Position numbers and translations under genes: made by a program. Of a stretch of 64,000 bases of DNA, positions 60,247-63,347 are shown one piece after another (position 1 is the stretch's first letter; the number at the start of each line of letters is the position of its first letter). A model generated the notes under the pieces. That model worked only from the letters and a program-made list of their open reading frames with translations. It had not been told where the DNA came from and searched no databases. The DNA lies in the sequence record PQ093904.1, one strand, 5' to 3'. Source of the stretch: Pseudomonas phage phi9_PA9.

Positions 60247-60748
60247 GATTAATCCCTTTGTTTGGGTTCCCCAGTCATGTACCGAAGAGTTAAATTGAGT
60301 GTATGGACACCAACACTGAATGCCAGTCGACCATCGGCATGTATATATGCAATACGTTTCTTAAAGAAAGCATCTGTTTCAGCGATAGCTTCCTCTGAAT
60401 AAACTGCGTTAAATGATACAGTGTCTCCGTCAAACGTTATGTTCAGTATCAGTCGTTAATTGATACCCGCACCATTACGTGCAGCTCTAGCTCTCGCTAG
60501 AAGACCAGACTATATCTTCACCTACAGCATCATCTGTTTAGGTGCTCTCCATTTCGGATCACTTGATCCTACGGGGCGCAACCCCCTAGTCGTTGAACGT
60601 TCCACATATTACAGTTAAGTAACTTAGCGGCTTCGCTGCTGATTGTCTCTACCTAATCATTTTCAAACATTCGCACTTACTGTTTCCAGTTATGCTGTAG
60701 TTGATTAGTTTAACGAGAGTTTCCAGCAATTAGAAGAGTAAAACATAT
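60247..60748 (-). ncRNA. Group I intron catalytic core (minus strand). The P, Q, R and S elements are present in canonical order, together with a P9 hairpin carrying a GAGA tetraloop.
   Basis: On the minus strand: P = UAAUUGCUGGAAA (forward 60721-60732), Q = AAUCAGCAGCG (60634-60644), R = GUUCAACGACUAGGG (60584-60598), S = AAGAUAUAGUCU (60507-60518). The P7 helix is GACUA/UAGUC and the P4 helix is GCUG/CAGC. P9 is CUAGC-GAGA-GCUAG. There is no ORF longer than 40 aa, and GC content is locally elevated. Confidence 0.6.
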
Positions 60749-61822
60749 TCATTTCGGAATATGTGGACTTATGTATTTTACTGCATAATTTCTAAAAATA
60801 CAACCATGTTCAGATTTCCTTAGATGATAACCTAAGCAACCTGGTGTGACATTGAAAAACTCGGCGGCTTCCTTCAGTGAGTTTTTTATTAATACAGCTT
60901 CAGATTCTAATGATTCAATATGAATTCTACGATGGGTTTCCACATACATGAGATTATCATTATTCCATGGTGTATCATCATCTTCGTATTTAAACTGTAA
61001 TGACTGATTGTAAACAAGATTACTATTTTTAGTTAAACGTAATCTTAAAGTTTCACCATCTATACCAATTTCTCGGGCGCATTGTTCTATGCTGTAATAA
61101 CGAGTTATATTGGTAGTTATAAGGTCTCTGACCAAAACTGCTTTGGAATTATGAAGTCCATTGATGTGCGCATGTTCGCAATTTCTTTTACGAGTAGCCC
61201 ATTCAAGGTTTGTTAAATCATTACAATCTTTAATTGTATTTAAATGATTCACATCAAGTGAATCAACATTACCTGGATATTTTAAAAAAGCTAGACTAAG
61301 AAGACGGTGCATTCCTACAATTGTACGTTTACCTACATCCGGCTGAACACCATACATCAGATAACCATCTTCATTCATGTATGGTGAAAGATGATTACTG
61401 CTAACAGTACTAAGTACTTGTCCAGCGCGATTAATCATGTATCTACTGTATCCGGGAATATAACAGTATTCTTTTATTAATGGATGGGTAAGTTCGCCTT
61501 CAGGACATGCCCAAATAAAATTAGTTAGGCGATGATTACTTTTATTACCGTCTTTGTAAATAACGCGTAGTTTATGTAGTAACTGCATTGGTAATATGCA
61601 GTTTCTATACGTAACACCTAATACAACAGATAGTGCCAAACCGTCAAACCATTCACCTGTTGTATGTTCAGGAAAAAGATGTTCGCCTTCATCACTAACC
61701 ATTGTGGTCAGTACGCGTTTACTTATACTTTCTCTAGCTATACCACTACAGCTGATTTCATACATGCCACCAGTGTGTGGTATCTTTTTAAATCCTGGAT
61801 TTTCAATGAATTTTTTTAACAT
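60749..61822 (-). CDS. HNH homing endonuclease (357 aa)
   Basis: HNH motif VNHLNTIKDCNDLTNLEWATRKRNCEHAH, an N-terminal GYSRYMINRAGQVLS module typical of phage HNH HEGs, and C-terminal DNA-binding repeats. The SD is AGGATAACAACC-ATG. Confidence 0.75.
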   Translation of the reverse strand: MLKKFIENPGFKKIPHTGGMYEISCSGIARESISKRVLTTMVSDEGEHLFPEHTTGEWFDGLALSVVLGVTYRNCILPMQLLHKLRVIYKDGNKSNHRLTNFIWACPEGELTHPLIKEYCYIPGYSRYMINRAGQVLSTVSSNHLSPYMNEDGYLMYGVQPDVGKRTIVGMHRLLSLAFLKYPGNVDSLDVNHLNTIKDCNDLTNLEWATRKRNCEHAHINGLHNSKAVLVRDLITTNITRYYSIEQCAREIGIDGETLRLRLTKNSNLVYNQSLQFKYEDDDTPWNNDNLMYVETHRRIHIESLESEAVLIKNSLKEAAEFFNVTPGCLGYHLRKSEHGCIFRNYAVKYISPHIPK

Positions 61823-61874
61823 GGTTGTTATCCTATTTATTTCCTATAGGATAACTAGATATACAGTATTACAA

Positions 61875-63347
61875 TTAATCCGCCCCCAATGGTGCGAGAA
61901 TAGAAGGCGATATGGATACTGAGTCATGCCACTGGGCAGGTTTATTTAATTCAAACACAGGGAATTCTAAGGCTGGTTCCAACGTATCATCACGTTCCCA
62001 TTGATCATTTAACGGATAACGTAATTCACCCACTACGGTTGTTTTAACATACATCTTACAGGGGATAGAGCTATTGTAGTTTTCTACAGGATATCGTGTA
62101 ACAAACGCTGAGTTTGTTCGCCACATACTTAATCCACTAAGGTAAACTAATTCGGCATAAGTAATGGGTCTAACAAATTTCTTATTTAGATTAGTAGGTA
62201 ACTCATCGATGTTACGGAATATTTTAAAATTCTGTTTATCATCAACGTAAATAAGGGCTAGATAATGATCAGCAATTTCAATTGCACGTGAACGTTTTTC
62301 AATGACATCTAACTCATTGATGATTTGTTCTTGCCCTTCAGGAGTTCCCCATAAATCCATATCTTCGTTAGAGATATCAACCCATTCTAAACGTAGTGTT
62401 TTCTTATTGATGAGCTGCACAGTGTTAGTAACTGTATCAAACACTTCACCAACTACACCTTGCCTTAGTGCAAAGATTGTACGCGGTGCAACAGAACGAG
62501 CTGCTTGATGTAAGCCAACTACTGCATCTTTGAATGTTGGTCGATTAGGTGAGTCAAGATCAGCAGCATTAGTATCTAGCGAACTAATTACGTTACGAGT
62601 GCCATTGGCAATACGACGGGATGCCCATTTGGATTGGATATAGCCTCGTTTGCTACCAGCCAGTAACCTTTCATAATGTTCATAAATAGCTAATACTGTA
62701 TTTTGCATCGCTACTCGTTTGCGATCATAGATACTCAAGTCATCATTTGGTCCGAAGCTGTCAGGTACACCAAACGACTGATTTAATAGATACCTATAAT
62801 GTTCATTGACCTCATCCATCTCAACACGATTATTCTCATCAATCTCTGCATCACGATAAGCAGCTGGTGTTACAATCATGTCTTTAAAAATACAGTTATC
62901 TTTATATTTTTCGATTAATTGTAATCTTGATAGCCGAATCCCTGATTTAGTTGACCCAAAGTCAATTCGTTTCCAGTTATCAAAAAAGAATGTATAACCA
63001 GTTTTACCAGTTAGTTCATCAGCGCGGATAAAATCTTTAATAGATTCGTCAAATACTGCAAATGCCTTACCAAGAATAATTTCTTCATAGAAAGCTTTTA
63101 ATTTAATTAAGTTTCGATATACAGCTGGATGGATAAGTTCTAAACCTAAATGGATATATCCAAATAAACTCTCACGATCAGTTGATCCAACCCTTCCAAA
63201 AATGGAAACAGAGAACAAACCATCTTCATGAAAGTTACCACCTAAACCTTCAAATATCTCATGACTCTTTACTTGACCTAAGAACTTTAATTGTTCTTTA
63301 GTAGGAATAAGTAAAGAAATATTAAAAGGAACTAATGCCTTCTTCAT
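61875..63347 (-). CDS. virion RNA polymerase beta'-like subunit, N-terminal portion (490 aa; phiKZ gp180 by position)
   Basis: FGYIHLGLELIHPAVY aligns to beta' region A MGHIELAAPVAHIWF. GSKRGYIQSKWASRRIANGTRNVISS aligns to LLGKRVDYSGRSVITVGP. The C-terminal QWHDSVSISPSILAPLGAD* aligns to QLHPLVCAAYNAD, so the ORF stops inside the catalytic NADFDGD motif. Confidence 0.6.
   Translation of the reverse strand: MKKALVPFNISLLIPTKEQLKFLGQVKSHEIFEGLGGNFHEDGLFSVSIFGRVGSTDRESLFGYIHLGLELIHPAVYRNLIKLKAFYEEIILGKAFAVFDESIKDFIRADELTGKTGYTFFFDNWKRIDFGSTKSGIRLSRLQLIEKYKDNCIFKDMIVTPAAYRDAEIDENNRVEMDEVNEHYRYLLNQSFGVPDSFGPNDDLSIYDRKRVAMQNTVLAIYEHYERLLAGSKRGYIQSKWASRRIANGTRNVISSLDTNAADLDSPNRPTFKDAVVGLHQAARSVAPRTIFALRQGVVGEVFDTVTNTVQLINKKTLRLEWVDISNEDMDLWGTPEGQEQIINELDVIEKRSRAIEIADHYLALIYVDDKQNFKIFRNIDELPTNLNKKFVRPITYAELVYLSGLSMWRTNSAFVTRYPVENYNSSIPCKMYVKTTVVGELRYPLNDQWERDDTLEPALEFPVFELNKPAQWHDSVSISPSILAPLGAD

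Follow-up and report, generated by a model that had tools for sequence, protein, structure and literature searches.

The window analysed here, a stretch of 64,000 nucleotides (nt) from Pseudomonas phage phi9_PA9 (sequence record PQ093904.1), carries on its minus strand a gene for the β′-N-like subunit of the virion RNA polymerase (RNAP) that is interrupted within its catalytic motif. The interrupting element is very probably a mobile self-splicing group I intron of the IA type with a length of 1443 nt. Its boundaries, the fold of its ribozyme, the identity of the second exon and a presence/absence polymorphism among relatives were established in this study. Judging by sequence identity, the window belongs to a Pseudomonas jumbo phage of the phiKZ type. 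Over the 3.6 kb surrounding the intron it was 98.9% identical to Pseudomonas phage PhiPizzaParty, the closest relative of the window's phage, and 97.6% identical to phiKZ, and the respective values for the ribozyme were 100% and 98.7%. Three minus-strand open reading frames (ORFs) are concerned, a 490-amino-acid (aa) ORF, an HNH endonuclease ORF and a 1451-aa ORF, and their phiKZ counterparts are PHIKZ180, PHIKZ179 and PHIKZ178.

Exon 1 is the 490-aa ORF (63347-61875 with its stop codon), whose product ends in ...SPSILAPLGAD and is directly followed by UAA. The end of this ORF and its context GAU|UAA, pointed out in an initial annotation as typical of a group I 5′ splice site, were confirmed in the sequence: the final exon codon is GAU (D490), and the 5′ splice site follows U61878. 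Right after the ribozyme the sequence reads ...CUGAACAUAACG|UUUGACGGAGACACU..., with the 3′ splice site AACG|UUUGAC after G60435, and translation from U60434 yields FDGDTVSFNAVYSEEAIAETDAFFKKRIAYIHADGRLAFSVGVHTLNLTLRYMTGEPKQRD*, which ends at 60249. This second exon carries the catalytic Asp triad. It possesses neither a start codon nor a Shine-Dalgarno sequence of its own and is in frame only after an exact join; without a start codon it is therefore missing from any ORF list. In-silico joining after U61878 produced ...LAPLGAD|FDGDTV..., a 551-aa product with a perfect ADFDGD. The insertion point lies between GAU and UUU, that is, between D and F of the Mg-binding motif (G)ADFDGD, and GADFDGD occurs only once the exons are joined. 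The odd D-F-F-D-G-N junction that had puzzled the initial annotation is gone with this 3′ splice site. The predicted junction of the spliced RNA is GGGGCGGAU|UUUGACGG (GCGGAU|UUUGAC), and the predicted junction peptide of the spliced protein is LAPLGADFDGDTVSF (...SILAPLGADFDGDTVSF...). The spliced subunit would have a mass of about 62 kDa, as against about 56 kDa for the 490-aa form.

The join was mirrored by the intron-less gene of phage PA7, in which the site reads CCATTGGGGGCGGAT|TTCGACGGGGACACTG. The spliced protein was identical to the uninterrupted 551-aa PA7 product at 548 of 551 positions (60 of 61 in the exon 2 part), and the two DNAs were collinear without gaps once the 1443 nt at 61877-60435 had been removed. 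The PA7 gene runs on for 61 codons past the site and stops 2 nt before a separate β-like coding sequence (CDS). The invasion of the NADFDGD-coding site of a β′-like gene by an intron with its endonuclease gene, as initially proposed, is thus borne out by the intron-less state of PA7 and by the restored GAD|FDGD. The comparison with uninterrupted relatives upheld the intron in the β′ gene but not the 3′ exon chosen at that stage, the true one being exon 2 at 60434-60249. Neither RNAP ORF (490 aa, 1451 aa) matched Pfam at an E value of 0.01 because the subunits are too divergent, and PHROGs and phmmer searches of the PDB were used instead. Of the 539 positions of phrog_2986 ('RNA polymerase beta subunit'), exon 1 alone covered 1-484 (677 bits) and the spliced protein 1-538 (753 bits). 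In the searched PDB copy, which contained no virion-RNAP structure, the spliced 551 aa gave a weak match (E 0.2) that spanned the junction at the ADFDGD region of a Pol V largest subunit.

The ribozyme was recognised by Rfam model RF00028 (Intron_gpI) at 60806-60485(-) over its full length (model 1-253 of 253) with 93.4 bits and an E value of 9.9e-23, the gathering score being 50. This match to a group I core is far beyond chance. The GC-richer, ORF-poor segment with the P, Q, R and S elements, the P7 pairing and a GNRA-capped P9 was found exactly as initially quoted: G+C amounts to 0.44 at 60400-60699 versus about 0.35 in the flanks, P7 is GACUA/UAGUC, and P9 is capped by GAGA. A structure of 91 pairs was proposed from the Rfam alignment and inspection, and all 91 are standard pairs in the window. 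Covariation was assessed over 15 phage introns, comprising three copies from gene 180, four that interrupt the ADFDGD site of gene 55, two additional Rfam-scoring group I introns situated upstream of these in the KTN4 and PA_ZH1 gene-55 loci, the phiKZ gene-71/73 intron, the β-gene introns of 201phi2-1 and Serratia 2050HW, the PhiPA3 dnaB intron, and the introns of Pseudoalteromonas H101 and Aeromonas PhAER-4. As a result, 87% of the cells were paired, versus 37-44% with the partners slid, and double-sided changes were found in 65 of the 91 pairs versus 20-29 in the slid controls (0 of 500 shuffles as high). Both the Rfam scan and the covariation-supported fold, named beforehand as checks on the intron proposal, therefore came out in its favour. 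Covariation was heavy in P5a, P6a, P7.1, P7.2, P8, P9 and P9.2; P4 and P7 are invariant and consequently carry no covariation information. By its P7.1 and P7.2 hairpins between P7 and P3′, the intron belongs to subgroup IA, which is typical of phages.

A separate observation concerns the L9.2 loop UUAACGA (60453-60459), which is nearly invariant across distant relatives. Its UUAAC is complementary to GUUAA of J5/5a (60710-60714, just 3′ of P5), with 5 of 5 pairs in most introns; A-U, G.U and G-C variants were seen, including one A-U to G-C change. By this complementarity the two segments may form a tertiary loop-loop contact, although introns without P5a retain the same L9.2 loop.

The substrate helix P1 directly abuts P2 and has a U61878.G60768 wobble at the splice site. 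Its extension P1a, formed by UACUGUAUA and UAUGCAGUA (60779-60787) with 9 of 9 standard pairs, would close a loop of about 1.07 kb holding the endonuclease gene. P1a was present in both the minimum free energy and the centroid RNAfold structures of the endonuclease-less intron of fMGyn-Pae01, and unconstrained folding of that intron recovered P1, P1a and most core helices (z -4.07). In sister introns the guide covaries with the exon (gene 55, AAU/GUU; Serratia, UGAU/GUCA; 201phi2-1, GAU/GUC). A guide within the first 30 nt of the intron, with the ORF in the P2 loop, was also considered. By inspection no candidate there had G opposite U-1 together with more than two further pairs, and this arrangement was rejected in favour of GUCC at 60768-60765, which adjoins P2. 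The first hairpin drawn by Rfam (60802-60782) contains two non-standard pairs and is better read as the 3′ strand of the long-range P1a.

The HNH ORF reported downstream of exon 1 was verified by Pfam HNH_3 (PF13392; E 6.5e-9, above cut-off), by phrog_59 HNH endonuclease (E 4e-31) and by a match to the SPO1 intron enzyme I-HmuI (PDB 1U3E; E 2e-8 over residues 121-230). Its product shares 98% aa identity with phiKZ gp179 and about 30% with gp56 and gp72. The enzyme is I-HmuI-like and probably a nickase. The P1 loop accommodates the ORF, the last codons of which run through P1a′, the guide sequence and the 5′ strand of P2, with the stop codon in the loop of P2. Ahead of the gene is a 10-bp hairpin, GUUAUCCUAU...AUAGGAUAAC, whose 3′ strand includes the AGGA Shine-Dalgarno-like sequence of the endonuclease gene just upstream of the start codon. 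The hairpin (61855-61827) is kept in fMGyn-Pae01 through wobble changes (G-C to G.U, U-A to U.G), and its position suggests a role in translational control of the endonuclease. Sequestration of the endonuclease AGGA in a hairpin resembles the translational control of T4 I-TevI.

The distribution of the intron was counted among 43 phiKZ-like records containing a gene-180 homologue. The gene-180 ribozyme core occurred in only 8 of them, and in 6 of these 8 the endonuclease gene was covered as well (PhiPizzaParty, phiKZ in two records, LC and two Wadjak isolates). OMKO1 and fMGyn-Pae01 have kept the ribozyme and lost about 965 nt of the endonuclease gene by deletion, with its first and last ~20 codons remaining; the shortened intron measures 478 nt. 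The relatives without the intron include SL2 as well as PA7. When the 3601-nt query was compared with related phage records, the intron-less records among the matches listed had spans of 2155-2158 nt (60%), which fits the loss of just the intron. As far as sequences can tell, this is what one would expect of a homing element that repeatedly invades, suffers decay of its endonuclease gene and is lost again. The presence/absence polymorphism, taken with the analogy to PhiPA3 gp210, suggests that in co-infected cells the enzyme may nick alleles without the intron and so bring about homing. Co-conversion of flanking DNA was considered from silent exon differences, since of the 38 positions at which the window departs from PA7, 6 are no more than 61 nt away from the junction. 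It was dropped because the pattern does not follow intron presence: at +3 and +9 the intron-bearing phiKZ has the same bases as PA7.

The introns are also mosaic, and ribozyme domains appear to have been exchanged between loci and phages. Phage 6B (L005, 2439-2830) is without the gene-180 intron, yet its gene-55 intron has a P5abc and a P6 of the gene-180 type (identical at 72/74 and 56/58 positions). The gene-180 intron of fMGyn-Pae01 (L003, 2126-2516) has a different P5abc module, 41/74 identical, with compensatory changes. Some phiKZ-like phages have two separate Rfam-scoring group I introns at the gene-55 locus, as found in KTN4 (L006, 993-1288 and 2445-2766) and PA_ZH1 (L012, 1838-2087 and 2353-2673); phiKZ has one there.

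In the proposed mechanism, the pre-mRNA is read from the minus strand, and the last exon bases GGAU would pair with GUCC, the internal guide situated some 1.1 kb further downstream, while the 9-bp P1 extension would loop out the endonuclease gene. A guanosine would attack after U61878, and the freed exon 1 would then attack after omega-G60435, so that exon 1 would be ligated to the 61-codon exon 2 to give a 551-aa subunit with DFDGD intact. That guanosine-initiated self-splicing of this kind takes place in vivo is what we infer from the conserved features of the element. In a mixed infection, alleles of this gene that lack the intron would be cut by the endonuclease and would acquire the intron in the course of repair (homing). 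Several points weigh against splicing. P1 has only four exon base pairs, and P10 is essentially absent, with only U+1/U+2 able to pair with A60769/A60770 (at most 2 bp). Many group I introns can do without P10, and its weakness is therefore compatible with membership in this class. The long-read transcriptome of phiKZ, the sole such survey in which splicing was looked for, provided no splicing evidence at gp56, gp72 and gp179 under its conditions (Putzeys 2024, PMC10914365); it was obtained by ONT-cappable-seq from pooled time points, a method that enriches primary 5′ ends.

The lack of spliced reads for the phiKZ introns in these ONT-cappable-seq data, and the public records that annotate just the 490-aa ORF, would be expected if the ribozyme were a fossil. 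There would then be no splicing, and the virion RNAP would use a 490-aa gp180 truncated before DFDGD, with the catalytic aspartates supplied by another polypeptide or by a separately translated exon 2. Such an enzyme split at its active site was one of the two outcomes initially envisaged, and we regard it as very unlikely. The core elements are complete, the U.G pair and omega-G are kept, and the helices are maintained by compensatory changes. Exon 2, devoid of a start codon and a Shine-Dalgarno sequence of its own, comes into frame only on an exact join and matches the intron-less gene at 60 of 61 residues. Furthermore, the endonuclease-less derivative retains the ribozyme, specialists report DFDGD in gp180 and have cloned the gene through exon 2, and the sister gene-55 intron is removed in the structure of the non-virion RNAP (nvRNAP), 7OGP.

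The absence of spliced reads from the pooled-time-point data could also mean that splicing is inefficient or conditional, in which case the intron would act as a throttle or timer on active virion RNAP instead of being a purely selfish passenger. The overlap of the endonuclease ORF with the guide and P2 speaks for this view, as translation and ribozyme folding should exclude each other on any one transcript, and splicing of T4 introns is described as dependent on translation and growth state in work cited in the phiKZ transcriptome paper (PMC10914365). However, as most related phages manage without the intron, an essential regulatory function need not be assumed. Phages deleted for orf179 are viable, and the scarcity of reads may be no more than an effect of the 5′-end-enriching method. 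Regulation of this kind is considered unlikely. It seems similarly improbable that splicing is confined to the ribosome-free phage nucleus, where transcription is separated from translation. If it were, nuclear splicing would set both the amount of catalytically competent virion RNAP made and the amount of unspliced RNA exported for endonuclease synthesis.

The mobile, self-splicing intron preferred here leaves the downstream 1451-aa ORF as a gene in its own right. This ORF had initially been taken for the downstream part of β′ with a region H C-terminus. Instead, its residues 1054-1446 aligned with Thermus RpoB (β) 536-910 (E 5e-8), and it covered the jumbo-phage 'RNA polymerase beta subunit' family phrog_3148 over its full length from residue 3. 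In PA7 the counterpart has a CDS of its own, beginning 2 nt past the stop codon of the 551-aa gene, and phiKZ gp178 has been treated as a β homologue (Birkholz et al. 2024, Science). According to these alignments, the 1451-aa gene encodes an independent β-like subunit and is no continuation of β′. The Shine-Dalgarno sequence initially noted for it is present as AAAGGGA in the last codons of exon 2. As a side observation, the gp178 homologue of the window is uninterrupted at the HDD site (…EHDDPKRINF…).

The initial annotation had also considered that splicing might join the 490-aa ORF to the 1451-aa ORF near QFFDGNNAV, giving a single β′ of ~1900 aa. The sole point for this is a loose likeness of QFFDGNNAVMGP to FDGDQMAVHVP, which must be a chance match since the 1451-aa protein is β-like (RpoB 536-910). 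That protein fits its family from residue 3 and is encoded separately in intron-less phages, 2 nt past the stop of the 551-aa gene. Moreover, omega-G 60435 lies about 190 nt upstream of the 1451-aa ORF, and a perfect FDGD exon comes immediately after it. The fusion is refuted by the intron-less PA7 gene, which stops after 61 further codons, and can be regarded as practically untenable.

Table 1 Features of the interrupted gene, its intron and neighbouring genes; positions are those of the window unless a locus is given.
Feature	Position	Strand	Description	Basis
Exon 1, virion-RNAP β′-N-like gene	61878..63347	-	phiKZ gene 180 homologue, 490 codons	ORF list, sequence
Group I intron (very probable)	60435..61877	-	1443 nt, subgroup IA type; starts UAAUUG, ends AUAACG; omega-G 60435	join, Rfam, covariation
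Exon 2, β′-N-like gene	60249..60434	-	61 codons and stop, FDGDTVSF...GEPKQRD*	translation, PA7 match
Ribozyme proper	60435..60769	-	guide sequence, P2, P3, P4, P5 with P5a/b extension (GAAA loop), P6/6a/6b, P7, P7.1, P7.2, P8, P9 (GAGA loop), P9.1, P9.2, omega-G	
Core element P	60731-60720	-		sequence
Core element Q	60644-60634	-		sequence
Core element R	60598-60584	-		sequence
Core element S	60518-60507	-		sequence
P7.1	60586-60573	-	GGGG...CCCC	every pair with double changes
P7.2	60569-60556	-	GGAUC AAGU GAUCC	every pair with double changes
P1, 5′ strand	61877..61881	-	exon GGAU and intron U	pairs with guide AGUCC 60769-60765
P1 extension (P1a), 5′ strand	61860..61868	-		predicted to pair with 60779-60787
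Endonuclease hairpin	61827..61855	-	10 bp	sequence, predicted fold
HNH homing endonuclease gene	60749..61822	-	phiKZ gp179 homologue, 357 aa	Pfam, PHROGs, PDB
β-like virion RNAP subunit gene	55891..60246	-	phiKZ gp178 homologue, 1451 aa	RpoB alignment, phrog_3148
Counterpart of PhiPizzaParty short CDS	60290-60433 (L013 691-831)	-	'hypothetical protein'; almost certainly spurious	
Counterpart of PhiPizzaParty short CDS	60460-60618 (L013 861-1019)	+	'hypothetical protein'; almost certainly spurious	

The element itself is already known, and specialists use the correct gene model, so the initial impression that it had no prior description did not hold: gp179 has been treated as intron-encoded since 2002, and DFDGD in gp180 has been published. 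According to Mesyanzhinov 2002, as cited by Putzeys 2024 (PMC10914365), gp56, gp72 and gp179 are predicted intron endonucleases, and for introns in gp55 and gp180, two RNAP subunits, the 201phi2-1 transcriptome paper (PMC11512511) refers to Ceyssens 2014. Yakunina 2015 does not mention the introns. Both Gp180 and Gp55 have DFDGD (Antonova 2023), and the reverse cloning primer KZ180-R of that study (…TTAATCCCTTTGTTTGG), when reverse-complemented, matches the end of exon 2 up to and including the stop codon. In a 2025 preprint, gp72 and gp179 were termed 'intron-encoded homing endonucleases'; orf179 was deletable, and transposon insertions in it were polar on the downstream essential RNAP gene. 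In the phiKZ RefSeq record NC_004629.1 and in the PhiPizzaParty and Koomba Wadjak 1 records, the annotated gene terminates with GAD-stop, and there is no annotation for the FDGD exon. Automated analyses would therefore score a β′ without its catalytic motif or seek the motif in the wrong gene. The PhiPizzaParty record additionally contains two short 'hypothetical protein' CDSs, which cover exon 2 out of frame and the ribozyme antisense and are almost certainly gene-caller artefacts of the unrecognised intron. The practical value of the present analysis lies in this annotation gap and in minor anatomical detail. In addition, the intron family, with its gene-55 sisters and β-gene relatives, could help trace recombination and competition of co-infecting chimalliviruses.

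That homing introns occupy active-site codons in essential genes of phages is textbook knowledge, and the intron of the window has several known counterparts. The phiKZ gene 180/gp179 intron (PHIKZ180-PHIKZ179) is the same element with the same insertion site, endonuclease and ribozyme, differing only by strain-level substitutions. The intron of phiKZ gene 55 with gp56, in the β′-N-like gene of the nvRNAP, likewise has an HNH gene upstream of the core and interrupts an NADFDGD-coding motif; in both this locus (L004, 3171-4540, the phiKZ gene 55/56 region) and the window, the interrupted coding motif is GAUUUUGACGG (ADFDGD). Its insertion lies 6 nt further upstream, N|ADFDGD versus AD|FDGD in gene 180, its P7.1 is much larger, and its endonuclease is about 30% identical. 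The P9-P9.2 3′ domains of the gene 55 and gene 180 introns are identical at 66 of 68 positions, whereas other modules are 40-70% identical. This pattern suggests transposition between the paralogous genes 55 and 180 followed by exchange between the intron copies. PDB 7OGP chain A ('PHIKZ055 … PHIKZ056.1') reads ...LKAPN|ADFDGDQLN..., the same as the join predicted from DNA.

Introns of the same family also interrupt jumbo-phage virion RNAP genes at conserved catalytic-region residues in PhiPA3 (gp210), 201phi2-1 (gp273/274) and Serratia 2050HW. Unlike the β′ site of the window, these lie in the β gene (the gp178 homologue) after HDD. Same-site introns were located in 201phi2-1 (L007, 2357-2693) and Serratia 2050HW (L009, about 914-2300), and the 201phi2-1 intron, in contrast to that of the window, is without an endonuclease gene. 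The HNH endonuclease gp210 of PhiPA3 is a nicking enzyme with a demonstrated role in mediating competition between phages (Birkholz et al. 2024, Science). Further afield, the SPO1 DNA-polymerase intron (I-HmuI) and the T4 td, nrdB and sunY introns (IA2) are likewise of the IA type with P7.1/P7.2, interrupt essential genes at conserved positions and harbour a homing-endonuclease gene, and the HNH domain of the window is homologous to I-HmuI. The intron ORFs of SPO1 and T4 sit in P6, P8 or P9.1, as opposed to the P1 loop in the window, and the host gene in the window, unlike theirs, encodes a subunit of a multisubunit RNAP.

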